Source of the DNA: an uncultured beta proteobacterium
GTDB lineage: Bacteria > Pseudomonadota > Gammaproteobacteria > Burkholderiales > SG8-41
Assembly (NCBI GenBank): GCA_903885665.1
Contig: CAISJL010000004.1
Coordinates: forward strand, 40-64,039
Reading direction: 5' to 3'
DNA: 64,000 nucleotides
The notes beneath the pieces were generated by a model that searched no databases, was not told the origin of the DNA, and saw nothing but the letters and a program-made list of their open reading frames with translations. Within the stretch, counting starts at the first letter, position 1. Each line of letters starts with the position of its first letter. Of the stretch, positions 12,371-49,704 are shown in pieces. The position numbers and the translations under genes were made by a program.

Positions 12371-12398
12371 AACGTGGCGAAAGCCGCGTTTTTTTTTA
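12371..12398 (+). terminator. rho-independent terminator
   Basis: acgtggc-gaaa-gccgcgt stem-loop followed by T9. Confidence 0.8.
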
Positions 12399-12440
12399 CT
12401 TGAGAAGCATTCACAGTAATTATTAAAAGGACTGCAGATC

Positions 12441-13412
12441 ATGTTCATGAAGATGCGAATGTTGGTGCTGGGTTTATGTGTAGGTTGCTCATCACTTTGG
12501 GCAGCGGGTGTGTCTTATCCAAACAAACCCATACGATTAATTGTGGCTTTCCCACCCGGAGGCTCTACAGATATTATTGCGCGCCTTGTCGCGCAGCGCT
12601 TGGGTGAGCAGTTGGGCCAGCAGGTGATTGTCGATAATCGGGGTGGTGCAGGTGGCACTCTAGGCACTGAAATTGCAGCACGCGCAGCGCCTGATGGTCA
12701 CACCTTAACCATGGGCACGACCAGCACACATGTGATTGCGCCTGCTGCATACACTACTGTTAAATATGACCCTTTGAAAGATTTTGAGCCGATCACTTTG
12801 GTAGCTTCAACGCCTTATTTGCTGGTGGTTCACCCCGGCGTCAAAGCCAGCAGCGTGAAAGAGTTTGTCGCTGTAGCTAAATCGCAGCCTGGTAAATTAA
12901 ATTACGCTTCAGCTGGAACAGGTTCTACAACACATCTTGCGATGGAGATGCTCAATGCAGCGGCTGGAATGAATGTCGTGCATGTACCTTATGGTGGTAA
13001 CGGACCAGCAGGCACTGCGGTATTGGGTGGGCAGGTGCAGGCATTGTTTGGCAGTATGCCGGCAGTGTTGCCGCACGCGCAAGCAGCTCGAGTTAGACCG
13101 CTCGCCGTAGGCACCGATAAGCGTTCTCCCGCATTGCCTAATGTGCCCACAGTGGCAGAGTCTGGTTATCCTGGCTTTGAAGTATCACTGTGGTTGGGGT
13201 TTTTTGCACCTAAGGGTACAGCAAAACCAATTTTGGCACGCCTAGAGAAGGAGTTAACGGCTATCGCAAACTCACCAGAAATGGGCGCATTGTTTGAGAA
13301 AAATGGGGCGAGTCCGTTGACGACCACACCGAATGAGTTAACTCAATTAATGGGTAGAGAGTTGCAAAAATACGGCAAAGTAATCAAGGCTGCAGGTATA
13401 CAGCTGAAATAG
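12441..13412 (+). CDS. Bug-family substrate-binding protein
   Basis: Signal peptide followed by YPNKPIRLIVAFPPGGSTDIIARL and VPYGGNGPAGTAVLGGQV. Confidence 0.85.
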   Translation: MFMKMRMLVLGLCVGCSSLWAAGVSYPNKPIRLIVAFPPGGSTDIIARLVAQRLGEQLGQQVIVDNRGGAGGTLGTEIAARAAPDGHTLTMGTTSTHVIAPAAYTTVKYDPLKDFEPITLVASTPYLLVVHPGVKASSVKEFVAVAKSQPGKLNYASAGTGSTTHLAMEMLNAAAGMNVVHVPYGGNGPAGTAVLGGQVQALFGSMPAVLPHAQAARVRPLAVGTDKRSPALPNVPTVAESGYPGFEVSLWLGFFAPKGTAKPILARLEKELTAIANSPEMGALFEKNGASPLTTTPNELTQLMGRELQKYGKVIKAAGIQLK

Positions 13413-13469
13413 ACTATTGCTTTAGCTTAGCAACTAACTGTATTTATTGTGTTGAAATTAACTAAGTGT

Positions 13470-14645
13470 TTATAGTGTTGTAGCGGGTGGTAATGCAGGC
13501 TCTTGTTCGCGATGAGATAGCCATCCGCTGATACCTAAAATTGCTGCGCTTGTCCAAAACACAGGTGCGATACCTAATATAGCCCCGACTGATCCAGCAG
13601 CCAATGGCACAATAATATGCGTAATATTATTGATAGTGAGGCGTAGCCCTGTGACCTCTCCAGATCGGCCTGGGGGAGAGCGGTTATAGGTTAAGTTAAG
13701 CGTGAGCGGTTGACTAACGCCTAGGGTGAGACCAATCCCAAATGAGAGCGCCATCAAGGCCGGCACATAATGAATATAGGTAAAAGGGATGAGGAGCAAT
13801 GCCGCTATGGCCATGGCCCAAGCAAGCACCATCTCTACGCTAAAGCGTTGCGTCAGTTTAGGTAAGAAGACGCGTACTATAAAACTGGCTGCAGCAAAAG
13901 CGCCCAGAATACTGCCAATGGTTGATGCATTGAGCCCAATCGAGTGACCGTAAATGGGCACATAAAATGTATATAAATCCCAGCCAGTAGTGACTAGGCC
14001 GCTAACAATAATCATGCGGCGTAGTGGAATAACTCGCAATAAGGTGAAGGCGCTTGATTGGGTGGGGCTGCTGCGAGTGCCTGAGTTGCCCATTGTCGAT
14101 GAAACCAATGCGACTATCGGTAACAAAGTGAGAATTGCAAAGGTGGCGTAAGCTGAACCGTAGCCGTAGTGGTCAATCATTAAGCCGGCTAATACTGGGC
14201 CAATAATATGACCGCTAGAGTAACCAAGTGCTAAGTTTGAAAAATTGCGAGTGCGATCATCAACAGAGCCAATGGTGCCAGCTAAGGTTTGGACGGATAC
14301 ATTAAAGAACACAAACCCTGCACCAACCAGTGGTGCAGAGATGAAGAGAGCGGGTAGTCCTGGTATTAGGGCTGGAATGATCAAGCCAATGGTAAAGACA
14401 ATGACGCCGCCAAGCATTGGCCAACGCGAGCCGTAGCGATCGGCGAGTTGCCCTACTAACAGTGCGCAAGCTAATTGAAATACCGAATAAGAGGCAATTA
14501 GTACCCCAATTAACATGGAGCCTGCGCCTAGATGTAGTGCGTAAAGTGATGTGACGACACGCCCACCCATATAACCACCCTGTATAGCTAGGGTGAGCAG
14601 TGTGAGTTTGGTAATGGGTGAGAGCATATTAGAGGCCACATTCAC
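13470..14645 (-). CDS. MFS transporter
   Basis: 391 aa with about 12 TM helices and GQLADRYGSRWPM (MFS loop 2-3 motif). Confidence 0.8.
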   Translation of the reverse strand: MNVASNMLSPITKLTLLTLAIQGGYMGGRVVTSLYALHLGAGSMLIGVLIASYSVFQLACALLVGQLADRYGSRWPMLGGVIVFTIGLIIPALIPGLPALFISAPLVGAGFVFFNVSVQTLAGTIGSVDDRTRNFSNLALGYSSGHIIGPVLAGLMIDHYGYGSAYATFAILTLLPIVALVSSTMGNSGTRSSPTQSSAFTLLRVIPLRRMIIVSGLVTTGWDLYTFYVPIYGHSIGLNASTIGSILGAFAAASFIVRVFLPKLTQRFSVEMVLAWAMAIAALLLIPFTYIHYVPALMALSFGIGLTLGVSQPLTLNLTYNRSPPGRSGEVTGLRLTINNITHIIVPLAAGSVGAILGIAPVFWTSAAILGISGWLSHREQEPALPPATTL

Positions 14646-34485: not shown

Positions 34486-35726
34486 GCAATGCAGTAGCAG
34501 CGCTTAGCGCTCAAGAAGTTCAGGCTATCCGTCAGGATTTTCCAATTCTTGATTTACAAGTTAATCACAAGCCTTTGGTGTTTTTAGATAATGCTGCCTC
34601 TAGTCAAATGCCCAGTGCAGTGATGTCGCGTTGGCAACACTATCATTCAGCACAACATGCCAATATTCATCGGGCTGTGCATTATTTATCAGAGACTGCA
34701 ACTGCTGAATATGAAGCTGCTCGCCAAAAAGTGCAGCAATTTATAGGTGCTGCTGAAGCTCGAGAAATTATTTTTACTAGCGGCACCACTGAGTCTATTA
34801 ATTTAGTGGCCCATAGTTATGGCCGCAGTACATTGCAGGCGGGTGATGAGATTATCTTAACCACGCTGGAGCATCATTCTAATATCGTCCCTTGGCAGAT
34901 GGTGGCTGAAGCCTGTGGTGCAAAAATCCGTGTTGTACCGATTAATGATCAAGGTGAAGTGGATGTCGACGCTTATCGTTGCTTATTTAATGCTAAGACG
35001 CGTATCGTTGGCTTAACCCATGTTTCAAATGCTCTAGGTACAATCAATCCGGTGCGAGAGATGGTTGCGATAGCGCATCAACACGGTGCAGTCGTGTTGG
35101 TGGATGGTGCGCAAGCTGCACCGCATTTAGCGCTAAATGTGCAAGAGTTAGATTGTGATTTCTATGTGTTTTCAGGTCATAAGTTGTGTGGCCCTACCGG
35201 TGTAGGTGTGCTCTATGGTCGGGCTGCATTATTAGAGGCAATGCCACCTTATAAAGGGGGTGGCGATATGATTTTGACCGTAACTTTTGAGCGTACGACT
35301 TACGCGCCTATCCCCGCAAAATTTGAAGCAGGTACACCCGCGATTGGTGCAGTGATCACGCTAGGAGCGGCGCTGGATTATCTGTCTAATATTGGGATGA
35401 ATAGGATTGCAGCTTATGAAGCACAGTTGCTACGCTGTGCCACTAATCGGCTGGCAGCTATGCCAGGCGTGCGTTTGATAGGTACAGCTACTCATAAAGC
35501 AGCAGTATTGTCGTTTACCGTGGATGGAGTGCATCCACATGACCTGGGGTCTTTGCTGAACGATGATGGTGTGGCGATTCGCACTGGGCATCATTGCGCT
35601 CAGCCGGTCATGCAGCGCTATGGTATAGCGGCGACTTGCCGAGCATCTTTTGCGTTTTATAATACGGAAGCTGAAATTGATGTGCTGGCCGAATCTGTGG
35701 CCAGAGTTCAGCTGTTATTTTCTTGA
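34482..35726 (+). CDS. sufS: class II cysteine desulfurase SufS
   Basis: FSGHKLCGPTGVGVLYG (PLP lysine) and RTGHHCAQP (active Cys). Confidence 0.93.
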   Translation: MSNAVAALSAQEVQAIRQDFPILDLQVNHKPLVFLDNAASSQMPSAVMSRWQHYHSAQHANIHRAVHYLSETATAEYEAARQKVQQFIGAAEAREIIFTSGTTESINLVAHSYGRSTLQAGDEIILTTLEHHSNIVPWQMVAEACGAKIRVVPINDQGEVDVDAYRCLFNAKTRIVGLTHVSNALGTINPVREMVAIAHQHGAVVLVDGAQAAPHLALNVQELDCDFYVFSGHKLCGPTGVGVLYGRAALLEAMPPYKGGGDMILTVTFERTTYAPIPAKFEAGTPAIGAVITLGAALDYLSNIGMNRIAAYEAQLLRCATNRLAAMPGVRLIGTATHKAAVLSFTVDGVHPHDLGSLLNDDGVAIRTGHHCAQPVMQRYGIAATCRASFAFYNTEAEIDVLAESVARVQLLFS

Positions 35727-35769
35727 ACGGGTATTGCAGTTTATTAGTTTCTTGAAATGAGATTGGTTT

Positions 35770-36213
35770 ATGGATAGTCGGCAGTTGTATCAGGAAATGA
35801 TTCTCGAACATAATAAAAAACCCCGAAACTGGGGTTTGCTCGAGCAGTCAACGCATCGCTCTGAAGGGGTAAATCCTCTGTGTGGCGATCACATTTTTTT
35901 GTCGCTACGCATGGCAGATGATCGCGTAGAGGCTGTTGGATTTAGTGGTGAGTCTTGTGCAATTTGTAAGGCCTCGGCGTCGATGATGACAAGCTTGATT
36001 AAGGGGCGGCAACGTCATGAAGCTGAACAAATGGTGCAAGAGTTTAGAGATATGACGACTGGTAAATTAGACCCTGCAGCACCGCATCATCTGGGTCGAT
36101 TAACCGTGTTTGCGGGCGTGCGTGATCTGCCGACCCGTGTGAAATGTGCGGTACTTCCTTGGCATACACTGCATGCTGCTTTGGCAGGAGCTGATGTGAC
36201 CTCTACTGAATGA
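35770..36213 (+). CDS. sufU: SUF-system NifU-family sulfur acceptor (SufU-like)
   Basis: 147 aa with NPLCGD and ESCAICKASAS motifs. Confidence 0.82.
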   Translation: MDSRQLYQEMILEHNKKPRNWGLLEQSTHRSEGVNPLCGDHIFLSLRMADDRVEAVGFSGESCAICKASASMMTSLIKGRQRHEAEQMVQEFRDMTTGKLDPAAPHHLGRLTVFAGVRDLPTRVKCAVLPWHTLHAALAGADVTSTE

Positions 36214-36232
36214 TTTTATAGCGATACTTGAT

Positions 36233-36799
36233 ATGCCTAAAATTGCAGATATTGAAACCACCCCTAATCCCAATGCGATGAAGTTTATATTGCGTGAACC
36301 TCTGACCTGGGGCGTCACGCGATCCTACGATAATCCAGAGCAAGCGGTAGGTGATCCATTAGCGTCGGCATTGTTTGATATCGAGTATGTCACTAATGTG
36401 TTTTATGTCGACCATTGGATTACAGTCACACAAAATGGGCGAGCTGACTGGGAGACGCTCAAGCGTGAATTAGCGGTGCCAATACGTGAGGCGGCGTCAG
36501 CGGACGCACATTCAGCCACGCTGGCAGAGCAAGCAGCTGATATGCTTGACCCAGAGCTGTTGAGTGAAGAGGATAGAATTAAACTGGATCAGATTAACGC
36601 GGTACTCGATGAGCAGGTTAGACCATTTTTACAAAATGACGGTGGCGATCTGTATGTGACTGGCTTATCTGGTCAAGTGCTGTCAGTCCATTATCAGGGT
36701 GCATGCGGTAGCTGTCCGAGCTCATTGTCAGGCACTTTGGCAGGCATTGAAAGTTTGGTGCGACAAATTGATCCTGAAATGCAGGTTGTAGCGGTGTAG
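36233..36799 (+). CDS. Nfu/NifU-type Fe-S carrier (Nfu N-terminal domain plus NifU C-terminal CxxC domain)
   Basis: IETTPNPNAMKF at the N-terminus and GACGSCPSS near the C-terminus. Confidence 0.82.
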   Translation: MPKIADIETTPNPNAMKFILREPLTWGVTRSYDNPEQAVGDPLASALFDIEYVTNVFYVDHWITVTQNGRADWETLKRELAVPIREAASADAHSATLAEQAADMLDPELLSEEDRIKLDQINAVLDEQVRPFLQNDGGDLYVTGLSGQVLSVHYQGACGSCPSSLSGTLAGIESLVRQIDPEMQVVAV

Positions 36800-36801
36800 T
36801 C

Positions 36802-37122
36802 ATGGCCGATTGGGTAACGGTAGCACAGGCTGATGAAATTGCCCCTGGTGCAGTCAAAGTGGTTGACCTTGATGGTGCAAATGTTGCCATTTTTAATATC
36901 GATGGCGAGTATCTAGCGCTCGAAGATGTGTGTAGCCATGATGGTGGTGAATTGGCGAGCGGCAAAGTTGACGGTGATCAAATTATATGTGCTCGTCATG
37001 GTGCGCGGTTTTGTTTGCGCACTGGTGAAGCCTTGTGCGCACCGGCCTATGAGCCTACGGCAGTATTCCCTGTGCAAATGCTAGGTAGTGCAATTCAAAT
37101 CAAAGATGAGCGTTGGGATTGA
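36802..37122 (+). CDS. Rieske [2Fe-2S] ferredoxin-like protein
   Basis: 106 aa with CSHDGG ... CARHGARF (Rieske ligands). Starts 2 nt after the nfu stop. Confidence 0.85.
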   Translation: MADWVTVAQADEIAPGAVKVVDLDGANVAIFNIDGEYLALEDVCSHDGGELASGKVDGDQIICARHGARFCLRTGEALCAPAYEPTAVFPVQMLGSAIQIKDERWD

Positions 37123-37625
37123 CAGCAATGCAATATCTAAAAAATTATTTAAAATCAATAACTTAATTGATAAAAGCAAGGCTTTCATAGTATATGGCGT
37201 TGCCCCAGAGTTCATTTAACGGTTAATGCGATTAGAGCGTTTATAGTGCTTGGCCGCATCATTTTTTACTAAACCTAAACCAAATGAGTTTGGTTTCTAT
37301 GTCAGAGGGGTAGTGTGAACAGGCTTCATGATCTAAATAAATGTAGTCATGCTTACGCCTGCATAGTCTGAACAAGTGTTTTTCTAAGAAAACCACTGAT
37401 TCACTTAATGTAGTGAATATAGCCGTTAGTTAATGACCAATTTAAATCACGCACATCATTTACAAGTTGTCGTTCGTGAAATAACTCGATATTTATTATC
37501 ACTAATACGCTTAAAGCACTTAGCAATCCTGCGGAAGGTAAAATATCGCTGAGTTGATTTCTGTTCTAGCCCACCATAATACACAATCTAGTATTTCTGC
37601 TTTTGAACATATAAGTATTGAACTG

Positions 37626-38296
37626 ATGATTAAAGAAGCTGTTTTTATAATTTTATGCTTTGCTTCTCAGGTATTTGCGCAAAGCACTTTGCCAGTGCAG
37701 ATTCACCATATGCATTCATACCTAAGGGATATGTCATTACCGAAACAATTCGGGGAGATTTAAATAAAGACGGGCTTGAAGATTATGTATTCATAACTAA
37801 GGGTACACTCAGTACTGGAATCGTTAAAGATGAAATGCGCGACTTACTAGATCGTAACCGACGCGGCATTGTGGTGGTATTCAATCAAAAAACTAAATAC
37901 GTGCTAGCACTTGAATTTCAAAACTGTTTTTCATCAGAAAACGAAGATGGCGGTCTTTATATGCCACCTTATCTGAATATTTACATCCAAAAGGGTGGTT
38001 TGTTTGTTCACTATGCACACGGGCGATATGGTTACTGGAGGTATATATTTCGCTATATAAACTCTGAATTTGTGCTGATCGGCTACGATAGAGAAGAGGC
38101 TCATGGCCCTGACATATTGAGCGCAATCAGCATCAACTTACTGACAAAAAGAATGAGTATTAAAGAAAATAGTAATCCTAATTACACCCCTATAAAGTTG
38201 AAACAGAAATGGATGAAATTTTCGATCAAAAAGCCGATTAGACTGGTTGACTTTTCGGATTTTGATGAATGTAAATCTACGCTCTTTGAATGCTAA
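37626..38296 (+). pseudogene. low-GC secreted hypothetical protein, with its signal peptide out of frame (apparent 1-nt deletion)
   Basis: ATG 37626 encodes MIKEAVFIILCFASQVFAQ in one frame. The 213-aa body (..SADSPYAFIPKGYVITETIRGDLNKDGLEDYVF..) is in the -1 frame. The frames join if caaag (37680-37684) were caaaag. Confidence 0.55.
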
Positions 38297-38518
38297 ATGC
38301 CATAAGAAGTTGTTTGGTGTATAAGCTTTATGGTTGGCTCTTAGACTCGGACTTAAACTCGTAGTCTTTAGATGAATATCCAATTATTTTATAGCTTAAG
38401 TTGATGTCGTCAAAGATCTTGCATCTTTGATATGATGTGACTGGTCAAGAATAAATCCATTGATGGATACAATTACAAACAAGCAATCAATCCGCTTGTT
38501 TTTGAGAGGGGGTTCGCT

Positions 38519-40195
38519 ATGGTAACCATGTCAAATCCAATGTTCCAACGACTAAGCAGGCGCCAATGGTTGTCGAATACCGCGCAATTCAGTGGTGGCC
38601 TATTGCTGAGTGCAGCGACCCCACTGTATGCCCAAAGCAGCGATCATGCGGTAGTGGAGACTATTTCGGGTAGAGTACGCGGACTGCGTACCAACGGTAT
38701 CTACAGCTTCAAAGGTATTCATTATGGTGCGAACACCGGAGGCGCTAATCGCTGGTTGCCGCCGCAAGCAGTTGCCCCGTGGTCTGGGATTAAAGACGCC
38801 ATCGCGTATGGTCCTCGTGCCCCTCAAAATGAGCGCCCTGCATTAGAGCCGCATTTGGCATGGATTCGTGATGGCCGCCCGCTTAGTGAAGACTGTTTGG
38901 TATTGAATGTATTTACCCCTGCCATTCATGATCAGGGTCGTCGACCAGTTTTGGTCTACATTCATGGGGGTGGTTTTGTTTCGGGCGCGAGCAGTGCGCC
39001 TGGTCTTGATGGACATCACTTTGCGCAGCGTGGTGATGTGGTGATGGTATCGCTAAATCACAGATTGAATGTGTTCGGTCATCTATCCCTTGCCTTAGAT
39101 GCTGGTGAGGCCTACAGAGATGCCGGTAATGTTGGTATGTTAGATATCATTCAAGCCTTGCAATGGGTGCGTCAACACATTAGTCAATTTGGTGGAGACC
39201 CAAATAATGTCACCATCTCTGGTCAATCAGGCGGCGCATCTAAAGTCGCAGTGTTAATGGCGATGCCGCAGGCTCGTGGATTATTTCATAAGGCCATTGT
39301 GCAAAGTGCATCATCACTATTACGTATGGCGACTCCCGATGAAGCACAGCGTAATACTTATTATTTACTCAAACAATTGAATCTAGATGAGTCGCATATC
39401 AAGGTTTTGCGTGAGATGCCCGTTGCTACATTGTTAGCAGCGATGCAAAAGGCAGTTGCTGCAGCAGGGCGAGTGGATAATTATCGGCCGGTTGTTGATG
39501 GTCGTGCACTACCTACTCACCCGTTTGATCCCAGCGCTGCGAGTATATCCCGCGATATTCCGATGATGATTGGATCATGTGAGAATGAAATGACATTCCC
39601 ATATTCGCAGGTCATGGAAAATTTCCAATATAATGAATCGCAAGCCTTAGCTAAGGTGCAAGACTTCGTGGGTGTGGATGAGGCTCAAGCGCGTCAACTC
39701 ATGCAACTATATCGTAGGTCACGGCCCCAAGCGTCTGCCAGTGATTTGTGGGTTGCCATTAGTACTGATCATCAGTATCGGCGCAATGTGATTAAAGCCT
39801 CGGAGCTGAAGTCTGATTTGTCAGCCGCCCCTTCTTGGCATTATTTGTTTACTTGGAAGACTCCGGTATTGAATGGGTTATTAAAGTCTCCTCATACGAT
39901 TTGCATACCGTTTTCGTTCGGTAATGTTGATATTGCGAGTGGTATTACCGGCAGTAGTCCAGAGAGATATGCGCTGCAACATGCAATGATGGATGCTTGG
40001 TATGCGTTTATGCGTACAGGTAATCCGAATCATGCGGGAATTCCGAAATGGCAACCGTATCATGTGCAACAACATCCCACTATGCTTTGGGATAACACTT
40101 GTCGTGTGGTAGATGACCCTGCGCGTGAAGAGAGAATGGCGATGAGTGCCATGCCTGCATACCGTGCAGATGGTAGTCGGGTTAAGTCTAGCTAA
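38519..40195 (+). CDS. type B carboxylesterase/lipase family protein with a Tat-like signal
   Basis: 558 aa with SRRQWLS twin-arginine-like motif, HGGGF oxyanion motif and nucleophile elbow GQSGGAS. Confidence 0.88.
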   Translation: MVTMSNPMFQRLSRRQWLSNTAQFSGGLLLSAATPLYAQSSDHAVVETISGRVRGLRTNGIYSFKGIHYGANTGGANRWLPPQAVAPWSGIKDAIAYGPRAPQNERPALEPHLAWIRDGRPLSEDCLVLNVFTPAIHDQGRRPVLVYIHGGGFVSGASSAPGLDGHHFAQRGDVVMVSLNHRLNVFGHLSLALDAGEAYRDAGNVGMLDIIQALQWVRQHISQFGGDPNNVTISGQSGGASKVAVLMAMPQARGLFHKAIVQSASSLLRMATPDEAQRNTYYLLKQLNLDESHIKVLREMPVATLLAAMQKAVAAAGRVDNYRPVVDGRALPTHPFDPSAASISRDIPMMIGSCENEMTFPYSQVMENFQYNESQALAKVQDFVGVDEAQARQLMQLYRRSRPQASASDLWVAISTDHQYRRNVIKASELKSDLSAAPSWHYLFTWKTPVLNGLLKSPHTICIPFSFGNVDIASGITGSSPERYALQHAMMDAWYAFMRTGNPNHAGIPKWQPYHVQQHPTMLWDNTCRVVDDPAREERMAMSAMPAYRADGSRVKSS

Positions 40196-40313
40196 AGTCT
40201 AGCTAGAGTTTTAACCGAGTCTCACTGCATTTTCACTAGAGGCTCACCAAGTTCGCGTAAAAGCCCTACTAATTCGATTGGGTGTTAGGCGATCATATCT
40301 AGCGTATAGGGCT

Positions 40314-40354
40314 AAACGATTACGGATCATTGATTTGGAGCTCCGTAATCGTTT
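40314..40354. terminator. perfect 13-bp inverted repeat between convergent genes
   Basis: aaacgattacgga - 15 nt loop - tccgtaatcgttt(t). The T-run is short, so terminator function is inferred. Confidence 0.5.
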
Positions 40355-40451
40355 TCAGGCTTTATGAATAGTTTTTTATGAATAATTACTAATCAACTGT
40401 ACGTGCAATACCATTTTTGCGTTTTAAACAACGATCAGCACAGATCTAGTG

Positions 40452-42209
40452 CTATTGTTGCCGCGACTCTTTAATCAGTTCATCAAAGCACTCTGGAATG
40501 GCAATCTCGCGCCCTAAAACTGCCGGGCTATAAGCTTGCATCCATAAGGCGTGACTAGAGTGTCCGCCACCCGCAACAATCAGTCCAATATTGTCAGCGT
40601 TAGAAGTAATTGGCCAGGGGTCGTGCTTGATACTGTCGCGACCTATTGCAGTAGAGGCAATTTTCATAAAAGCAGTGCCACCACTTTTGTTCATCTCGGC
40701 CATGGGAACTTTGGAGTGCAGTAATAGAAACTCACGCACATCTTTTTTAGTCCAACCTAAATCACCAAGCCCTGCAGCGACAACCTTAGAGATTACGACT
40801 AAGCCTGGAGTACCTTTGTCGTAACCCCAAAGGTAATGCACGTCAGGCACTCGCATGTAGCCCGCAATACGGTGAAGACCTTGAACTGCATCCTCCTCTT
40901 TAGTCTCTTCTTTAGCGCCTCGACGAAATACGTTGGTCGCGCCATTGCCAAAGGCTAAGGACAGACAGTTGCTACCTCCTGCAAATCCATGACGTTCATT
41001 CACATACGGAGTCCAACCTGCGGGGAGTCCGTCTTCATCTTCAGCAAATACCACATTGGTGTTACGCATCATGCCAAAGACCGCCATGGTGCCTACTCCG
41101 GGTAAGGCGCCACCTAAATTTTGTTGCATCAGCCGCAGTGCGCGGCCGATGCTAGCGCCTGCGGGATGTTGCGGGTCTGGTCCTAAAATACCAAAACCTG
41201 AATTCAGGCGAATTTTTTTTGCGATAGGGCCGTTCACGACAATCATGGGAAATGGGCTGCCTGAGGTGGCTTGGAGAAGATCACCGGTCGTTAAGGGGTC
41301 AAGAAAGGCATCGACCGCAGCAACTAACACTGGCAGATACTCTGGTCGCCCACCTGCCATCGCGAGTGCAATGGCACAGGATTCAATGGTGACCATGCCG
41401 CCGCGCGGTGGGAAGCGTCCAATGATGTGGTCACGCGGTAGCGTGGCGCCGCGTAGAATCCATTTTGTGCGAGCTTCTGTAGCTGGCCATAATGGTAGCC
41501 CGTCCCCCCAATGGCGTGCGAGTAGTAAGTCATTGACTTTAATGAGTGCAGTTTCATAATCGGCAGCACTGACTTCTAGCTGAGGACTACTGGTGGCAGC
41601 AGATTGGCGCGGTTGCCATTGAGTGAGGCCATCATAGAATTCTTGTTTGCGCTCGGAGAGTGCAGATAGATCCGCATCTGGTAGAAAATTATCTATAGGA
41701 AACACAACCATAGCGGCTTCAGGTGTAAACCCAACACCACCAACTGCATTGTTAACAACTCCAATAAATTCTTTACGAGTCAGTATGACTGTTGGGATTC
41801 CAAGCGCTTCGAGTTGGGCGGCAGCACGGCCGCATCCTGTTGAGCAGGCCCCTCAGGCAGCGTTACCAATAATGACTGCATCGACCCCACTATCTTTGAC
41901 CATTTGGACAGTGGCGGCTTGACCGATAATACTTGTGCCTTGAGGGAATTGATCATCTCCAATCACAGTGGCATCAGGAAAATCAGCCTCAATCAGCTGC
42001 TTTAAAAGGGGTAGCATGCGATAGGCTTGCCATTGACCGTTAGATAGGATGCCGATTTTTTTGCCGGCTAAAGTGTCTAAGCGTGGCGCATGCTGATGCA
42101 TTATTTTTAAAGCGCCAGATGGATCATAAAATTGCAGATTAATCATAAAGTGGGCTTTCTTGAATGGAGTGATGTGATTGAGTATTTCATTGTGCATACG
42201 CTGCGTCAA
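40452..42209 (-). CDS. candidate selenoprotein (U-x-x-C, UGSC-family-like) of about 585 aa, formed by reading through TGA 41853-41855
   Basis: The 118-aa and 419-aa ORFs are in the same frame (1758 nt in total, equal to 586 codons). The only stop between them is the TGA. The 47 intervening codons are open and protein-like (GACSTGCGRAAAQLEALGIPTVILTRKEFIGVVNNAVGGVGFTPEAA). The context is IIGNAA-U-GAC-STGC. There is no Shine-Dalgarno sequence before ATG 41711. The N-terminal start is ambiguous (TTG 42209, ATG 42197, or an internal ATG). Confidence 0.6.
41816..41837 (-). promoter_or_regulatory. SECIS-like hairpin downstream of the in-frame TGA
   Basis: The mRNA reads GG-AU-GCGGC-CGUGCU-GCCGC-CC. 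That is a 5-bp GC stem (7 bp with a 2-nt bulge) and a 6-nt loop containing GU. The loop starts 24 nt after the UGA. Confidence 0.45.
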
Positions 42210-42352
42210 GTCTCGCTACATCAATGATATGATTGGATCATCGTTTGGAATTGTTTATATTGAATCTGGAGCAGAAATTAATATTAATCAAGTGATTGGT
42301 CCATCATGATTTACAGTGGATGCATTCGCAGATCAGTGATACGGGTAATGCG

Positions 42353-42391
42353 ATTTAGTTAATGTAATTTAGTTAATGTAATTTAGTTAAT
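42353..42391. repeat. 14-bp tandem repeat, about 2.8 copies (atttagttaatgta)
   Basis: Two exact copies at 42353-42366 and 42367-42380, and a partial third. Lies in the divergent promoter region. Confidence 0.85.
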
Positions 42392-42500
42392 TTTATTTTC
42401 TTACTGTGACATCGCCAATTGTTTGACAAGCAAGGTTATAGAGATTGTTTGTATTAGACTATTTTTGATAATCAGAATGAGTTTCAGAGGTGAGGTTTAA

Positions 42501-43481
42501 ATGCGCCAACTGCATAGAGATTTAGAGATTATATTCGCGGTAGTGTTAAGCGTTATTGGATCGCAAAGCCATTTGTTGGCGCAAGGCTACCCCACTAAGC
42601 CAATTCGTATAGTTGCAGGCTTTGCAGCTGGTGGACCTACTGAAGTTATTGCGCGGGTTGCGGGGCAAAAGTTGTCAGATAAATGGGGGCAGCCGGTGAT
42701 CGTTGAGACTCGCTCTGGCGCGGGTGGCAATATTGCCGCAGAGTATGTGGCCAGAGCTGCACCTGATGGTTATACCTTATTGTTGCCAGCGTTTGCGCAT
42801 GCAGTGAACCCATCCTTGTATGCAAAACTACCCTTTGATACCAAAAAGGATTTTGCCCCTGTAGCATTGTTAGCGACTTCTGCCAATGTATTAGCGATCC
42901 ATCCCTCTATCCCAGCCCGTAGTTTACGTGAACTCATAGCACTGGCCAAGATGCAACGCACCCCGCTGACCTACGGCTCGGCCGGTGTGGCTACTGCGTC
43001 GCATCTTGCAGGTGAATTGTTTAAATCGATGGCAGGTATTCAGATCACACATATTCCTTATAAAGGTGCTGCACCCGCAAGTGTAGATTTATTAGGTGGT
43101 CATATTTCGTGCGCGTTTCCTGGGGTATCTTTAGTATTACCCCACTACCGTTCTGGGCGTATGCGATTAATTGGCACGACTAGCGCACAACGTTCGGCAA
43201 CCTTGCCCGAAGTGCCAACATTGGCTGAAGGGGGGTTGAAAGGTTTTGAGGTAATTTCTTGGTATGGCCTCCTAGCACCTGCTGCACTGCCTGTCGAATT
43301 GGTCTCACGTTTGCATCATGAGGTAGTGCGTGGCTTGGCTGAGGTGGATGCTATTGAGCGCCTGCAAGCGATTGGTGTGGGCGCCTCAGCGATCACTACT
43401 GCAGAATTTGCAGCATTTCTAAACCGTGAGCAAGAAAAATGGGCTCGGGTTATTCGTAGCGCAGGGCTGCAAGCGCAGTAA
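42501..43481 (+). CDS. Bug-family substrate-binding protein
   Basis: YPTKPIRIVAGFAAGGPTEVIARV and IPYKGAAPASVDLLGGHI. Confidence 0.85.
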   Translation: MRQLHRDLEIIFAVVLSVIGSQSHLLAQGYPTKPIRIVAGFAAGGPTEVIARVAGQKLSDKWGQPVIVETRSGAGGNIAAEYVARAAPDGYTLLLPAFAHAVNPSLYAKLPFDTKKDFAPVALLATSANVLAIHPSIPARSLRELIALAKMQRTPLTYGSAGVATASHLAGELFKSMAGIQITHIPYKGAAPASVDLLGGHISCAFPGVSLVLPHYRSGRMRLIGTTSAQRSATLPEVPTLAEGGLKGFEVISWYGLLAPAALPVELVSRLHHEVVRGLAEVDAIERLQAIGVGASAITTAEFAAFLNREQEKWARVIRSAGLQAQ

Positions 43482-43514
43482 GTGTGGATTGTATGAGAGT
43501 GATTAGGGAATTTG

Positions 43515-44858
43515 ATGAGTGATTTGATTGCGCGCGCAACATCACCGGTAGTGATATCGGTTTCTGAACTTAACCGTTTAGCGCGGCTTGCAGTTGAGCG
43601 CGGCATTGCCTTGATGTGGGTGGCGGGAGAGATCTCAAACTTTAAGCGCTATGATAGTGGTCATTGCTATTTCACGGTTAAAGATGATAGTGCTCAAGTC
43701 GATGCCGTGATGTTTCGCCAAAAGGCACAACACTTAGACTGGGTGCCAGAGAATGGCATGCAAGTTGAAGTTCGAGCCACAGCGACTGTCTATGAGGCGC
43801 GTGGCAAATTCCAAATTAATGTGGATGCCATGCGCCGTGCAGGGCTGGGCGCTTTATATGCGGCGTTTGAGAAGCTTAAAGCCCAATTACAACATGAGGG
43901 TTTATTTGATGCTGCACTTAAGCGCGAATTGCCTGCTTATCCGCGTACCATTGGTGTCGTCACTTCGCCTCAAGCAGCTGCTTTGCGCGATGTGCTCATT
44001 ACTTTACGACGACGTATGCCAAGTATTGCTGTGATTATTTATCCAACCCCAGTGCAAGGTGTGGGTGCGCATGAAAAAATTGCCCAAGCTATCGCGCTGG
44101 CAGGTATGCGTTGCGAATGCGACGTGTTAATTGTGTGCCGTGGTGGTGGCAGTATTGAAGATTTATGGTCGTATAACGAGGAGTGTGTGGCGCGCGCTAT
44201 ACGCGCATGCCCTATTCCCGTCGTCAGCGGTGTTGGGCATGAGACCGATGTCACTATTGCTGATTTTATTGCTGATGCTCGCGCTGCAACGCCAACTGCT
44301 GCTGCGGAAATGGCTAGTCCTGATGGCGTTGAGTTGGCGCGTCAGTGTGCCAGTTTAGCGCAGAGTCTAGTGCGTATTGTTCAGCGCGGCATCGAGGCGC
44401 GTATGCAGCAAGTTGATTACTTAGCGCGGCGCTTGGTGCATCCAGATGCGCGATTGGCGCAACAGGTTTTACATGTGCAGCAGTTGCAACGGCGCTTATT
44501 GCAATCCTGGGGCCGTCAATCTGCAGACGCCGCGTGGCGGATACGTGAGTTGTCGCAACAACTGCGACTGGGTGCGCCTGACATCGAATCCCAACTGCAG
44601 CGACAGCAATCGTTAGCCCAGCGATTGACGCGTGCGCTACATGAGCAGTTACGTATTGCTCAAGATCGTACCAACCGATTGCAGTCCGATTTACTGCATC
44701 TCAATCCACAGAGAGTATTGGAGCGTGGATATAGTATTACGACTCAGCTCGATGGTACGATTGTGCGTGATGCAGAGCAGCTCGCTGACGTAGAGAGCCT
44801 ACGCCTCACCCTTGCCCAAGGCTGGGCGCAGGTGAAGGTGGAATCTACAGGACAGTAA
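43515..44858 (+). CDS. xseA: exodeoxyribonuclease VII large subunit
   Basis: About 447 aa with an OB-fold N-terminus (VSELNRLARLAVE..WVAGEISNFKRYDSGHCYF), GRGGGSIEDLW and a coiled-coil tail. Confidence 0.92.
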   Translation: MSDLIARATSPVVISVSELNRLARLAVERGIALMWVAGEISNFKRYDSGHCYFTVKDDSAQVDAVMFRQKAQHLDWVPENGMQVEVRATATVYEARGKFQINVDAMRRAGLGALYAAFEKLKAQLQHEGLFDAALKRELPAYPRTIGVVTSPQAAALRDVLITLRRRMPSIAVIIYPTPVQGVGAHEKIAQAIALAGMRCECDVLIVCRGGGSIEDLWSYNEECVARAIRACPIPVVSGVGHETDVTIADFIADARAATPTAAAEMASPDGVELARQCASLAQSLVRIVQRGIEARMQQVDYLARRLVHPDARLAQQVLHVQQLQRRLLQSWGRQSADAAWRIRELSQQLRLGAPDIESQLQRQQSLAQRLTRALHEQLRIAQDRTNRLQSDLLHLNPQRVLERGYSITTQLDGTIVRDAEQLADVESLRLTLAQGWAQVKVESTGQ

Positions 44859-44880
44859 ATAGTGATTGCTAGTCAAGTGC

Positions 44881-45714
44881 TTATTGGCCAAAACCAAATA
44901 AGCGGGCAGGATTAGTGCACAGAATTGTTTGGCGGTCATTATTATCGGGAAACCAACGCTTTAAGCAGGCTAAGAGAGGACTGTAATCCATGCGTGCATC
45001 AAAGCGAGTAAACGGCCAATCTGAGGCCCACACGCAGCGCTCTATGGTGAACGCTTCAACTAAGGCTTGAATGTAAGGTTCGACGTCGCTATAGGGGTAT
45101 GGCTGTTGTGAGAAGCGGTAGACCGCAGAGAGTTTAACCACGGCGTTGCTGTTGCGTCCTAGCGCAAGCAAGGCTTGGAATCCTGGTTGTTGTATACCAC
45201 GGCTCAAATCGGGGCGACCGCAATGATCGATGATAACCCGCACACCGGCACGCTCTAAAATCGGTAGTGCGTCAACCAGTTGATCCTTGCCGTATTGAAT
45301 TTGTGCAAACCAATTGGCGGCTTTAATCTTGGCGAGTAAGTTTGGCATCTCGGCGTCCTCCAGTACGCTCACGCCGTGATTAAATAGATTAATCCGCACC
45401 CCTACAATACCACCAGCTGCGAGTCGCTCGACTTCGTGTTCTGTGACGTTGTTTGGCAACAGAGCAATCCCCTTGAAGCGTTGATTGGATTGTGCAATGG
45501 CATCTAGCAGGCAGCTGTTGTCGTAACCATACGGACCTGCGCCAACCAAGAGGCCGTGCGAGAGTTGATGCAGTTCGAGCAAAGTCAGAAATTGATCAGG
45601 TGTACCTTCTTGGCAGGCTAATGGGGTATAAATTTCGTCAGTCTGATATTTAAAACGTGTTGGATTAAAGACGTGTGCATGGCAGTCGGCGCCGAGTAGG
45701 GGAGTCATCAACAA
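44881..45714 (-). CDS. amidohydrolase_2 family hydrolase (2-pyrone-4,6-dicarboxylate lactonase-like)
   Basis: 277 aa with N-terminal DCHAHVF, IDHCGRP and ASDWP motifs. Confidence 0.75.
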   Translation of the reverse strand: MLMTPLLGADCHAHVFNPTRFKYQTDEIYTPLACQEGTPDQFLTLLELHQLSHGLLVGAGPYGYDNSCLLDAIAQSNQRFKGIALLPNNVTEHEVERLAAGGIVGVRINLFNHGVSVLEDAEMPNLLAKIKAANWFAQIQYGKDQLVDALPILERAGVRVIIDHCGRPDLSRGIQQPGFQALLALGRNSNAVVKLSAVYRFSQQPYPYSDVEPYIQALVEAFTIERCVWASDWPFTRFDARMDYSPLLACLKRWFPDNNDRQTILCTNPARLFGFGQ

Positions 45715-45761
45715 TATTCCTTTGAAGTCTAGTTATTTGAATGGTGAATTGAGATACTGAA

Positions 45762-46775
45762 TTATTCGGGCAAGATGCGTGCGTCACGCACAATTTTGGC
45801 ATATTTCTCAAGTTCTTTTTGCAGGAAGCTATCAAAGGCCTGCACAGTTTGAGCTTGCGCTTCAATGCCTTCGAGAATGAGTCGATCTTTGATTTCAGGT
45901 GTGGCTAGCACACGATTGGCCGCATCATGCAGGCGATTGACAGTATCCAGAGGGGTGTTGGCTGGCAATAGCAATCCAAACCAACCGACTAGCGAATATC
46001 CTGGTAGGCCGCTCTCAGCGATTGTTGGAATATCGGCCAGCCCAACAAAGCGTTGAGGGCTGGTCACGCCTAGGGCCCTCAAGCGCCCAGATTTCGCGAG
46101 GGGCAGACCTGTGGACATCGCACTGAAATACAAACTGGTCTGGCCGCCGAGTAAATCGGTAATTGCTTGGCTGCCACCCTTGTAGGGGATGTGTAGCATG
46201 CTTAATCTTGCCATTGATTTAAATAGCTCCGGAGCAATATGTGTGGGGCTGCCGATACCAGCTGAAGCGTAGGTCAACTTGCCGGGGTGGGCGCGAGCTA
46301 AGGTAATGAGGTCTTTAGCGGATCGCACAGGTAGTGAAGGGTGCACAACTAATAATAATGGAGTGATCCCAATGAGTGCTAAGGGGCTTAAGTCTTTACG
46401 TAAGTCATAAGGCATTTTACCTGTGCCGTAGATGCTGACATTGGCAATTTGTGAGGAGTTTGCTAGTAGCATGGTATAGCCATCCGCTGGTGATTTTGCG
46501 ACATGGTCTGAACCAATGTTGGTTGCTGCCCCAGGTTTATTTTCGATGAGTATGGGCTTGCCTAAGTATTCGGCCATTTTGGGAGCCATGACTCGGGCTG
46601 CAGTGTCTACACCTCCGCCAGCCAGATAGGGCACGATAATGCGCATCGGTTTGGTCGGAAAGGGTTGGGTGAACGCTACAGCACAATAGAGGGTGCACAG
46701 AAGCGTGCTACAAGCCGCTAGTATTTGTTGGTGGTTTTTATACAGTGCATAGGTAGCGTGGTGCTGAGTTGGCAT
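45762..46775 (-). CDS. Bug-family substrate-binding protein
   Basis: FPTKPMRIIVPYLAGGGVDTAARV and IPYKGGSQAITDLLGGQT. It is upstream of the amidohydrolase on the same strand. Confidence 0.85.
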   Translation of the reverse strand: MPTQHHATYALYKNHQQILAACSTLLCTLYCAVAFTQPFPTKPMRIIVPYLAGGGVDTAARVMAPKMAEYLGKPILIENKPGAATNIGSDHVAKSPADGYTMLLANSSQIANVSIYGTGKMPYDLRKDLSPLALIGITPLLLVVHPSLPVRSAKDLITLARAHPGKLTYASAGIGSPTHIAPELFKSMARLSMLHIPYKGGSQAITDLLGGQTSLYFSAMSTGLPLAKSGRLRALGVTSPQRFVGLADIPTIAESGLPGYSLVGWFGLLLPANTPLDTVNRLHDAANRVLATPEIKDRLILEGIEAQAQTVQAFDSFLQKELEKYAKIVRDARILPE

Positions 46776-46816
46776 ACTAAAATCCTTGAACGATGGCGTG
46801 CTATTGATAGTAACCG

Positions 46817-47794
46817 TTAGCTGTTGAACGACTTGAGTTGGTGTTGAATATACTGCAGCACTTGAGTCTCTAGATCATTGTCCAAGCAGTCGAATGTGGT
46901 GAGCTCAGGCATGGCGCGCAGCCATGTGAGTTGCCGTTTGGCCAATTGGCGAGTGGCTGCAATACCTTGCTCGCGTAGTTGCGTCTGGTTGATTTGATTA
47001 TTTAGAAAATCCCAGGCTTGTCGATAACCAACGCAGCGCATGGCAGGCAGTTGCGCGTGTAGATTATAGGTTTTTTTTAATGCAGTTAATTCGTCAACCA
47101 ATCCTTGAGCGAGCATGTGGTTAAAGCGCACTGCGATCCGTTGGTGGAGTTCGGCACGCACGCTAGGAGTTAATGCAATAGTGATAGCGCGATAAGGAAA
47201 GTTTTGTAGTCGTGGCGCATCTAGTAATGCGCTCATGGCTTGACCAGTGATGCGATAAATTTCAAGTGCACGTTGCACGCGCTGGGTATCGCCAGGTTGT
47301 AAGCGATTCGCAGTGACGGGGTCGACTGTTTGTAGTTCGTTATAGACCGCTGACCAGCCAGCGCTGGCAGCTTGGTCTTCAATGGCTTGTCGTATTTCTG
47401 GGTCCGCTTGTGGCAGGCTATTAAAGCCTTCGAGCAAGGCTTTAAAGTAGAGCATTGTGCCGCCCACTAATAAAGGGATTCGACCGCGCGCAGTAATCTT
47501 GTGCATTAAGTCCAGCGCGTCATCGCAAAAGCGTGCAGCAGAGTAACTGTGTTCGGGGCTGATGATGTTAATTAGATGGTGCGGTGTATGAGCAAGAATC
47601 TCAAGCTCTGGTTTGGCAGTGCCTACATTCATGTCTAAATAGATCTGGGCAGAATCAACACTGATGATCTCGCACGGCAGTTGTTTAGCGATGGCAATTG
47701 CTACTGCTGTTTTGCCGCTTGCTGTTGGCCCCATCAGAAGTAGTGCTGGTGGTAGCGCAGTGGCTGTGCTGTGGGGATTGTTCAAGTTCTGCAT
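46817..47794 (-). CDS. miaA: tRNA dimethylallyltransferase
   Basis: P-loop GPTASGKT, and DSAQIYLDMNVGTAKP. Confidence 0.93.
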   Translation of the reverse strand: MQNLNNPHSTATALPPALLLMGPTASGKTAVAIAIAKQLPCEIISVDSAQIYLDMNVGTAKPELEILAHTPHHLINIISPEHSYSAARFCDDALDLMHKITARGRIPLLVGGTMLYFKALLEGFNSLPQADPEIRQAIEDQAASAGWSAVYNELQTVDPVTANRLQPGDTQRVQRALEIYRITGQAMSALLDAPRLQNFPYRAITIALTPSVRAELHQRIAVRFNHMLAQGLVDELTALKKTYNLHAQLPAMRCVGYRQAWDFLNNQINQTQLREQGIAATRQLAKRQLTWLRAMPELTTFDCLDNDLETQVLQYIQHQLKSFNS

Positions 47795-47856
47795 GGCGAG
47801 GATTTAGCGGTGTTATCCGTGTCTAGAGAATTGACGGCTAGTGGGGTAGGCGTTAC

Positions 47857-49704
47857 TTATTGACCGCGACGAAATAGGCGATCGAGAGCACTCACGGGCA
47901 TGGGATACCAAGTCGGGCGGCCATGGTTGCATTGCCCAGAGCGTTCGGTGATTTCCATGTCACGCAGGAGCGCGTTCATTTCGGTAACGCTGAGCCGCCG
48001 ATTAGCGCGTACTGCTGCGTGGCAGGACATAGTCCCCAGGAGTTCATTGCGTTGTTCGGTAGCAATGCGACTAGCTCCGTATTCGCGGATATCGTGTAGG
48101 ACGGCCAGGCTTAAGGCTTGGACATCGGCGTCCACTAGTAGCGCGGGGACACCGCGAATAATTAGGGTATTGGGGCCACCTAGCGCTAGATCGAAACCAA
48201 GAGACTCCAAGGTCTCTCGTTCATCTTCTACAGTGGCTACATCTAAGGCACTTGCTGTGCAATGCACCGGCATAAGTAGGGGTTGCATCGGTATATGTTG
48301 CGCATCGATCGCGGTTTTCAGTTGCTCATACATGATGCGCTCATGGGCAGCATGCATGTCTACAATGATCAGGCCTTGGCGATTCTCGGCTAAGATGTAG
48401 ATGCCGGCTAATTGCGCGAGCGCATAACCTAACGGATGCTCCTCATCCGTTAAAGCTTGTTGATTAGTGGCTTGCGAGTTTGCAATAGGCGCTAAGTGTT
48501 GGTCGCTATTTGCGCTTATGGTCAGAGTTGTTTCAGCGCTGATTGGGTTATTGCCGGCTCTGGGAAATAGTCGTTCGTAGGCATTTGTTGCTTGGGCTAC
48601 GCCTAGGCTGAATTGTGTTTGTTGACGATAGGTCGCGGGGGCTGGTGCTTGTGCTTGATCAGTTTGTTCGGTATGCAATGTTGTGCTCAATACCGCTTGT
48701 GGGCTTGGTGTTGTCCCAGCTGTTTTTGCCAACGCTTTATGTAGAGCATGAAACAGATATTGATGAACTGCTCGCGAGTCACGAAAGCGCACTTCTGTTT
48801 TGGCTGGGTGAACATTAACGTCGACCAGTTGGGGGTCGATTTGCAAAAACAACACATAGGCAGGGTGACGATCGTGATGCAGCACATCGGCATAGGCCTG
48901 GCGCACAGCATGGGCCACGACTTTGTCGCGCACACAGCGACCATTTACAAAAAAGTATTGGGTGTCGCGACTGCCTTTGGCTTGTGCCGGTGTGCTGATC
49001 GCACCTTGTAATCCGATGTGTCCGCTAAATTCGTCTACGCTGAGTGCCGCATTGCCAAAGTCCTCACCGACGGCAGCGTTGATGCGTGCATGTAGAGCAT
49101 GGGCGCGCCACTGGAAGCGAGCGCGACCGTTGTGCGTAAGGCTAAATGCAACGTCTGGTCGCGATAAGGCTAAGCGCCGCACGACCTCTTCACAATGAGC
49201 GAACTCGGTTTGTTCAGATTTAAGAAATTTGCGCCGTGCCGGTGTATTGAAGTAGAGCTCGCGGATGTCGATGCGGGTGCCTTGGGCTAAGGTCGCTGGC
49301 GCGATGTCGCCGAGTTGTGCACCTTCTGCGCTGATTTGATAAGCATGTGGGGCATCCGCGCGACGACTGGTTAATTCCAGTCGCGACACTGAGGCAATAC
49401 TGGCCAAGGCTTCACCGCGAAACCCTAAGCTGCTGACATGCTCTAAGTCATCTAGTGTGCTGATTTTGCTAGTAGCATGGCGTGCGAGTGCGAGGGCCAG
49501 TTCATCGTGTGCGATACCCTCGCCATCGTCGCTGACGCACAGTTGCTTAATGCCGCCCGCGGCTAATTCAATGCTGATGGCTTGGGCGCCAGCGTCTAAG
49601 CTGTTCTCGAGCAACTCCTTGAGTGCCGAGGCGGGGCGTTCGATGACTTCGCCAGCTGCGATTTGGTTGATCAGCAGTTCAGGTAATGGGGTAATGGAAG
49701 GCAT
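47857..49704 (-). CDS. mutL: DNA mismatch repair endonuclease MutL
   Basis: GHKL N-terminus NQIAAGEVIERPASALKELLENSLDAG, and C-terminal dimerisation domain with CNHGRPT. Confidence 0.95.
   Translation of the reverse strand: MPSITPLPELLINQIAAGEVIERPASALKELLENSLDAGAQAISIELAAGGIKQLCVSDDGEGIAHDELALALARHATSKISTLDDLEHVSSLGFRGEALASIASVSRLELTSRRADAPHAYQISAEGAQLGDIAPATLAQGTRIDIRELYFNTPARRKFLKSEQTEFAHCEEVVRRLALSRPDVAFSLTHNGRARFQWRAHALHARINAAVGEDFGNAALSVDEFSGHIGLQGAISTPAQAKGSRDTQYFFVNGRCVRDKVVAHAVRQAYADVLHHDRHPAYVLFLQIDPQLVDVNVHPAKTEVRFRDSRAVHQYLFHALHKALAKTAGTTPSPQAVLSTTLHTEQTDQAQAPAPATYRQQTQFSLGVAQATNAYERLFPRAGNNPISAETTLTISANSDQHLAPIANSQATNQQALTDEEHPLGYALAQLAGIYILAENRQGLIIVDMHAAHERIMYEQLKTAIDAQHIPMQPLLMPVHCTASALDVATVEDERETLESLGFDLALGGPNTLIIRGVPALLVDADVQALSLAVLHDIREYGASRIATEQRNELLGTMSCHAAVRANRRLSVTEMNALLRDMEITERSGQCNHGRPTWYPMPVSALDRLFRRGQ

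Follow-up and report, generated by a model that had tools for sequence, protein, structure and literature searches.

A stretch of 64,000 nt from an uncultured beta proteobacterium (GenBank assembly GCA_903885665.1, contig CAISJL010000004.1; hereafter the window, meaning the whole stretch) carries two minus-strand open reading frames (ORFs), 41853-42209 and 40452-41711, which share one frame and raise the question of whether the TGA between them ends a short gene or encodes selenocysteine (Sec, U) within a longer one. A previous examination of the letters alone, referred to here as the sequence-only reading, had proposed a single Sec protein. Our analysis leads to the conclusion that the two ORFs very probably constitute one Sec-type protein of the UGSC family, in a long form fused to a second domain. 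The predicted elements of this gene, all on the minus strand, are the following:

40452..42146, minus strand: predicted full selenoprotein coding sequence, 564 amino acids (aa) including Sec98, in one frame with a single internal TGA and the stop codon TAG at 40452-40454
41853..41855, minus strand: in-frame TGA, predicted to encode Sec98, the first residue of U-G-A-C; Cys at this column in 94 full-length homologues, TGA in 156 of 160 loci
41832..41855, minus strand: putative redox motif U98-G-A-C101-S-T-G-C105, from translation (Cys101 codon 41844-41846, Cys105 codon 41832-41834)
41727..42125, minus strand: UGSC-family domain, alpha/beta (PF24696, 70.3 bits; residues 25-157 of the 581-aa read-through)
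41818..41833, minus strand: candidate bacterial Sec insertion sequence (SECIS) hairpin, from folding; stem GCGGC/GCCGC (41833-41829 with 41822-41818), loop CGUGCU (41828-41823)
40455..41579, minus strand: C-terminal core domain, ~375 aa, without a sequence match in Pfam, NCBIfam or the PDB

Translation of the minus strand from 42209 to 40452 confirmed that TGA 41853-41855 is the sole internal stop of the common frame. The 141 nt between this codon and the ATG at 41711 (41712-41852) hold 47 sense codons with no further stop and translate as GACSTGCGRAAAQLEALGIPTVILTRKEFIGVVNNAVGGVGFTPEAA. The context of the TGA reads VDAVIIGNAA-U-GAC-STG-C, with the U-x-x-C motif and the additional Cys four residues later that had been described. 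When all six frames of the window were scanned for pairs of open stretches, each 50 codons or longer, with a single TGA between them, 11 places emerged, among which only this pair (120 + 466 codons) resembles one interrupted gene. TGA is the ordinary stop of 9 of the 44 large ORFs in the window, and the organism therefore uses the standard code. The length of the product had to be revised: the sequence-only reading started it at TTG 42209, giving 585 aa, but homologues begin with M-x-x-LEF(Y/H)(D/N)PSG, the equivalent of which in the window is ATG 42146 (MINLQFYDPSG), preceded by AAGAAAG. Judged from these N-termini, the start codon is probably ATG 42146, and the likely product has 564 aa with Sec98, Cys101 and Cys105; the upstream in-frame alternatives are ATG 42197 and TTG 42209.

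To examine the TGA column in relatives, the read-through, with U written as C, was searched against 5.8 billion protein clusters. Two groups were obtained. The 94 long relatives listed (572-604 aa, mostly 573-576; 96-98% query coverage, 53-60% identity) carry PF24696 and continue without interruption across the TGA column as IIGNAA-C-G-A/S-C-ST, with Cys in 94/94. The 26 closer relatives share 66-72% identity with the query (99% in one case) and have lengths of just 419-460 aa (437-460 aa for those at 66-72%); they have no Pfam domain and all start at MGIPTV, ~17 residues past the TGA column. Since the short relatives start just past this column while the long ones run through it, the former are truncated calls of TGA-containing genes. 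This is visible on the contig of one orthologue (L001), where a 97-aa ORF labeled 'UGSC (weak)', the TGA and a 456-aa ORF follow each other in a single frame, reading GNAA*GACSTACGRAAAQLELMGIPTV.

DNA of related loci was then fetched from metagenomes (80 loci) and from species-representative genomes (80 loci). The codon at the column is TGA in all 80 genome loci and in 76/80 metagenome loci; the remaining four carry TGC or TGT, and none of the 160 carries TAA or TAG. Most of the hosts are Burkholderiales or Betaproteobacteria metagenome-assembled genomes (MAGs), with Rokubacteria in addition. Sec forms thus exceed Cys forms among the loci fetched, and a Cys-containing Burkholderiales homologue, of the kind mentioned in the sequence-only reading, was recovered from a Variovorax sp. 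(P0073). The Sec motif is U-G-S-C in most related loci, U-G-A-C in the subclade of the window and U-G-T-C in others, and Cys forms read C-G-A/S/G-C. U/C-G-x-C is kept in all homologues, and Cys105 is invariant in Sec forms and replaced by Leu in one clade of Cys forms (P0105-type). The 47 codons after the TGA are also conserved as protein in the relatives. An in-frame UGA aligned to Cys, with conserved coding on both flanks, is the pattern by which selenoprotein genes are recognized, and the contiguous homologues bear out the proposal of a single gene. In addition to these loci, the contig that bears the Cys-form gene P0004 harbors at 12035-13665 (minus strand; L163) a 107-aa UGSC ORF followed by a 347-aa ORF without Pfam match, probably a Sec-type paralogue split by the gene caller.

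Assignment of the N-terminal domain to the UGSC family, also part of the sequence-only reading, was supported by PF24696, which scored 70.3 bits against a cut-off of 25; the homologues P0002 and P0105 scored 65-68 bits. As in known UGSC proteins, Sec or Cys occupies the same column and U-G-x-C follows a hydrophobic strand. Unlike them, the window protein carries U-G-A-C instead of U-G-S-C, and it is four times longer than the short UGSC form through its fused C-terminal domain. Zhang & Gladyshev (PLoS Genet 2008; PMC2398784) report a UGSC-containing protein family, mention a fusion of UGSC to a conserved 'Unknown_1' domain, and describe Sec members as far outnumbering Cys members in environmental data. 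Survey data place UGSC among the most abundant selenoproteins in Global Ocean Sampling (GOS) aquatic metagenomes and as the most frequently used family in non-marine samples. No function is given for the family in reviews of 2022 and 2026 either, the latter calling it uncharacterized, in line with the sequence-only reading. 'Unknown_1' may or may not correspond to the C-terminal core domain described here.

The Cys homologue P0002 was modelled with AlphaFold2 (predicted local distance difference test, pLDDT, 89.6; predicted template modelling score, pTM, 0.90). In this model the Sec/Cys position lies between strand 89-95 and helix 98-113 of the alpha/beta domain. PDB matches of the N-terminal model found with Foldseek are generic Rossmann- or flavodoxin-like domains; DHQS, FucO and the B12-binding domain were considered as relatives and rejected, with template modelling (TM) scores that did not exceed 0.27, apart from a generic flavodoxin-like match at 0.51.

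If the TGA is decoded as Sec, the mRNA should carry a recoding signal downstream of it. The bacterial SECIS (bSECIS) consensus of bSECISearch comprises an apical loop of 3-9 nt on a stem of 4-16 bp, a G as first or second loop nucleotide, with G or U as the usual next base, a spacing of 16-37 nt between UGA and loop, and a minimum free energy at or below -7.5 kcal/mol (PMC13188914). The GC-rich hairpin noted in the sequence-only reading, with a GU-containing loop about 24 nt after the UGA, was located by folding as described, and its values lie within all four published limits: the stem has 5 bp, the loop has 6 nt with G-U as its second and third bases, the spacing is 24 nt and the core folds at -8.7 kcal/mol. 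The stem may be extended by pairing GG 41837-41836 with CC 41817-41816. Like bSECIS elements, the hairpin sits inside the coding sequence and has a GC stem; unlike them, its stem is near the short limit of the range, it shows no covariation, and binding of SelB is putative.

Several results weigh against the Sec reading. The 50-nt region of the hairpin is no stabler than shuffled sequence (z = 0.45), for which reason thermodynamic stability was rejected as evidence for a SECIS element. No compensatory covariation was found in the stem among 79 distinct sequences, because the stem is invariant, and its arms encode the conserved Cys-Gly and Ala-Ala, so that the invariance is partly protein constraint. 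An NCBIfam scan of ten size-matched ORFs of the window gave MutL, RecJ, PntAB, MiaA and others, with no selA, selB or selD among them. ARAGORN detected no tRNA of any kind in the 64-kb window, nor did it detect tRNA-Sec in the related loci (1.9 Mb), and tblastn with an approximate E. coli SelD found none in the window or in 164 related loci, which is a weak negative; an Rfam search of the whole window at gathering thresholds gave no match. Finally, the NCBIfam equivalog model of the short form of ~147 aa (NF041046, UGSC_fam) scored 50.2 bits, below its cut-off of 125. By this score the window protein is a relative of the short UGSC form and not its equivalog, and annotation pipelines therefore do not rescue the Sec codon.

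As an invariant stem cannot display covariation, synonymous-site entropy was used instead, calculated on 146 distinct Sec-form genes over 134 four-fold-degenerate codon columns whose amino acid is at least 90% conserved. Third-position entropy averaged 1.2 bits over these columns and fell to zero only at the GGC codon of the 5' arm (41829-41831). The third positions of TGC in the 5' arm and of GCC/GTC in the 3' arm were likewise invariant in the 79 distinct sequences (A4), whereas flanking ones vary freely. The stem changes only in nine sequences, where GUC replaces GCC (Val for Ala) and a G-U pair is retained. In Rokubacteria-type sequences, CGU-GCA becomes CGG-GCG, with an extra C-G pair and a GGGC tetraloop. 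In three Cys-form genes, Cys is replaced by Leu at +7 and GCC by GCG at +11, and the hairpin is absent. On this small sample of Cys-form DNA, the patterns together indicate an RNA-level constraint specific to the TGA forms. The codons of Cys105 and Gly106 (TGC 41832-41834 and GGC 41829-41831) themselves form the 5' arm of the SECIS stem. Cys105 never varies among Sec forms, yet P0105-type Cys forms have Leu there, and it may therefore be the RNA structure, and not the function of the protein, that keeps this residue conserved.

Among the alternatives to Sec, the one that survives best is read-through by another route, in which the TGA would be suppressed by a near-cognate tRNA carrying Trp, Cys or Arg, for example in a lineage that has lost the Sec machinery; we regard it as improbable. 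In its favor, no sel genes or tRNA-Sec were found in the window and the related loci searched, and the hairpin shows neither covariation nor exceptional stability. However, 156 divergent loci keep TGA with no reversion to TGC or TGT, which argues for a selected, efficient decoding, and where Sec decoding had been lost, one would expect a Cys codon to become fixed, which happened in the four exceptional loci. The synonymous freezing of the hairpin only in TGA forms speaks in the same direction, as does the membership of an established selenoprotein family with the environmental excess of Sec over Cys members reported in PMC2398784.

A true stop, with a ~97-aa UGSC fragment and a separate C-terminal protein starting at ATG 41711 or at an internal start, is more improbable still. 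It corresponds to current annotation, as the NCBI, JGI and other pipelines call two genes; an ATG is available at 41711, and stand-alone UGSC genes and stand-alone core genes do occur in other organisms. However, the TGA would then split the UGSC domain midway, before the conserved x-x-C, helix and strand, and the 47 codons leading to the ATG are conserved at the protein level in all relatives. No AGGAGG-like sequence was found before ATG 41711, in agreement with the sequence-only reading, which had noted the lack of a Shine-Dalgarno sequence there. A genuine stop would also be expected to alternate over time between TGA, TAA and TAG, and its constancy as TGA, opposite Cys in contiguous homologues, therefore speaks against termination. 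In genuine two-gene arrangements, moreover, the UGSC gene runs ~50 or more codons past the Sec codon to a real stop. Although a single base change from TGC or TGT makes TGA, a nonsense mutation, assembly error or pseudogene is effectively refuted by the same codon at the identical position in a JGI metagenome contig of the same species (Ga0214919_10001127; 99.3% nucleotide identity to window positions 34500-48143, 13.7 kb), which as an independent contig rules out an assembly error, by the same codon in 155 other loci, and by the intact frames and conserved protein sequence of both halves.

With the TGA as a Sec codon, the effect of standard gene calling becomes apparent, as the sequence-only reading had anticipated: the 419-aa ORF and its near-identical copies occur in NCBI, JGI, ENA and Logan, and all named copies are 'hypothetical protein'. 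Hundreds of orthologues in public MAGs are split in the same way into a fragment of ~100 aa and a 'hypothetical protein' of 419-460 aa, and the NCBIfam UGSC model, being based on the short form, misses them. Correct automatic calls would become possible with a model of the long form combined with the conserved SECIS hairpin. Near-identical copies of window proteins were seen on up to 32 contigs across the same four resources and, with the 99.3% match in Ga0214919, they show that the organism recurs in many public environmental assemblies.

The second part of the protein, with a size given as ~350-400 aa, is characterized by the motifs WGDGLPxWPAT, ESCAIALAMAGGRPEY, QATSG, GPDPQHPAGASIGRALRLMQQNLGGA, FAEDE, ERHG and AGGGH. 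No Pfam or NCBIfam model matched this core domain at E <= 10, and no PDB entry matched it by sequence. A profile search of 1.84 billion representatives nevertheless collected 4067 clusters (50% identity) at E <= 1e-3, which makes the core domain a large, unnamed family. Across its remote members, the invariant residues are Asp, Thr, Arg, Glu and Trp together with a number of Gly, Pro and Ala, and no invariant Cys or His was found in the alignment. Candidate folds were rejected: the class I (Fe-S) fumarate hydratase 7xky_A was matched at E 9e-4 but with TM scores of 0.21-0.26, a root-mean-square deviation of 15.6 and no invariant Cys in the core, and Toblerone-fold hydrolases and cis-aconitate decarboxylase reached TM scores of at most 0.27 with Foldseek.

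Analysis of core genes in other genomes revealed a recurrent association with UGSC. First, the protein P0214 consists of a canonical UGSC domain (159 bits) fused to the core. Secondly, in GCA_041642995.1 (JBGGHL010000031.1, 4452-6485; L165), one frame of ~677 aa encodes a triple fusion of UGSC, core and FeThRed_B domains, currently annotated as a 92-aa and a 494-aa ORF; the TGA of its UGSC part lies in GIAS*GSCTAW, and its third domain is a ferredoxin:thioredoxin-reductase (FTR) catalytic domain (PF02943, E 1e-16). Thirdly, the stand-alone core genes P0223, P0258 and P0244 each have a Sec-type UGSC gene directly upstream; the motifs of these upstream genes include LLGN*GGCTSW next to P0258 (L166) and GSGD*GACTSW next to P0244 (L167). 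The occurrence of UGSC-core fusions and UGSC-core operons, together with a core devoid of conserved redox residues, ties the two partners to each other, and we lean towards UGSC being a redox module that serves the core as catalytic domain. Elsewhere (L168, 281-2490), two core paralogues of 362 and 374 aa follow each other in tandem, with an overlap of stop and start codon between them; they lie behind an apparent acyl-CoA dehydrogenase C-terminus, on a contig too short to judge a UGSC neighbor.

A further Cys-containing element was found at the end of the homologues. The C-terminal tail D-L-G-C/S-G-x-D/E-x-C-x-I (A2 columns ~598-612) is present in 94/94 Cys forms and 98/146 Sec forms, and it is missing only from the subclade of the window, whose protein ends ...IKESRQQ at 40455. 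With a pLDDT below 50 in the P0002 model, this tail may be a mobile redox or metal-binding arm. Its use as a marker of Cys forms versus Sec forms was rejected, since 98 Sec forms possess it.

The sequence-only reading had also compared the segment after the redox motif with GrdB/PrdB-type reductase subunits. Hidden Markov model (HMM) searches gave weak matches to PrdB and GrdF over residues 96-140 of the read-through, and P0002 added GrdH and GrdB. Pairwise alignment with a PrdB-like selenoprotein from the GOS supplement (E = 4e-5) placed U-x-x-C on U-x-x-C, with VDAALLV-PL-U-PV-C...LESNGIPTVI on VDAVIIGNAA-U-GA-C...LEALGIPTVI. As in GrdB, GrdF, GrdH and PrdB (PF07355), U-x-x-C ends a hydrophobic beta-strand and is followed by a helix and an LE..GIPTV strand, the similarity spanning ~40-55 residues around the motif. 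Unlike GrdB and PrdB, the window protein has an unrelated fused domain as its partner, and the hosts are Burkholderiales-type and Rokubacteria-type MAGs instead of amino-acid-fermenting anaerobes. The comparison therefore held for a local segment and failed for family membership: on this alignment, the N-terminal domain appears to be related to the Sec-bearing region of PrdB/GrdB, a resemblance that is real but local.

In Grd and Prd enzymes, a selenol acts as nucleophile and a resolving Cys forms a selenenylsulfide with it. Borrowing this chemistry by analogy, a mechanism can be outlined for the window protein. Judging from conservation, UGA 41853-41855 would be read as Sec by SelB with Sec-tRNA, under the direction of the mRNA hairpin 24 nt downstream. 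Sec98 would then be placed at the start of a helix, in U-G-A-C, within an alpha/beta redox domain fused to a core rich in conserved Asp, Thr, Arg and Glu. The core may bind and activate a small organic-acid or amino-acid-like substrate, with the Sec98 selenol serving as nucleophile or electron source and Cys101 resolving the intermediate to a selenenylsulfide. Re-reduction could be carried out by thioredoxin or a similar system here and by the built-in FTR-type domain in L165. Reductive cleavage of a bond, as in PrdB/GrdB, is a tentative suggestion for the reaction, which we consider possible and not likely.

Some findings count against such a function. The structure gives none, the best PDB matches having TM scores of at most 0.27. 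The similarity to PrdB/GrdB is local and weak, with 9-15 bits against cut-offs of 65-800 (TIGR01918, TIGR04483), which places the protein outside these families. The grdE/prdA pyruvoyl-subunit, grdA and thioredoxin-system genes were not found near the window gene or in the annotated relative neighborhoods examined. Neighborhood clustering of 162 loci revealed no conserved operon, and the surroundings are variable.

Both the UGSC family and its fusion to an uncharacterized domain were already described in 2008 (PMC2398784). Compared with the text consulted of that report and of the reviews, the size of the unnamed core family, the UGSC-core operons and the FTR-domain fusion appear to be additions, as do the SECIS hairpin common to the long forms and the PrdB/GrdB alignment. 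The recurrent fusion or adjacency of UGSC and core, the FTR-domain relative and the relation to PrdB/GrdB provide a testable frame for finding the substrate. More speculatively, and with less likelihood than the redox-module role itself, UGSC and core could together be a widespread, undescribed two-component or fused selenoenzyme representing a new class of substrate reductase. If so, a Sec/Cys redox domain would supply a new catalytic fold with electrons or with a selenol nucleophile and be recharged in some lineages by an FTR-type domain. The abundant UGSC selenoproteins would thereby gain a first function, and a reductase class would be added in Burkholderiales-type and Rokubacteria-type bacteria.

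Two further features border the gene:

42501..43481, plus strand: divergent gene for a TctC (Bug-family) periplasmic solute-binding protein, in a cluster whose members are named TctC; context, not shown to be functionally linked
40436..40454, minus strand: terminator-like hairpin overlapping the stop codon, a consensus scan match only and not evidence of function

The divergent Bug-family gene mentioned in the sequence-only reading is thus confirmed, and a 558-aa ORF (38519-40195) is the other neighbor. The same divergent TctC arrangement was found at L001, and TctC genes lie within ~7 kb of the UGSC-core gene in 71/162 loci. The families found in the neighborhoods include TctC, NMT1, branched-chain-type ABC binding proteins, LysR regulators, CoA-transferases and Amidohydro_2. 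The triple fusion L165 is accompanied by a fumarate-reductase-like flavoprotein, Fer2_3, UbiD, an old-yellow-enzyme homologue, SBP_bac_1 and CoA-transferases. These surroundings point to an imported organic or amino acid as substrate; with TctC genes abundant in these genomes and no single operon shared across the loci, they amount to a hint only.

Other genes of the window include an MmgE/PrpD-like gene (3050-4435; weak, 35 bits) and an Amidohydro_2-type lactonase-like gene (44881-45714); together with TctC (42501-43481), their families also surround the L001 orthologue and the Cys-form genes of L162 and L164. A perfect 14-nt tandem repeat, ATTTAGTTAATGTA, is present in 2.8 copies (42353-42391) in the AT-rich intergenic region that separates the divergent selenoprotein and TctC genes. 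This repeat abuts the -10 hexamer of a promoter-like consensus match on the minus strand (42418-42390) and may be an operator.

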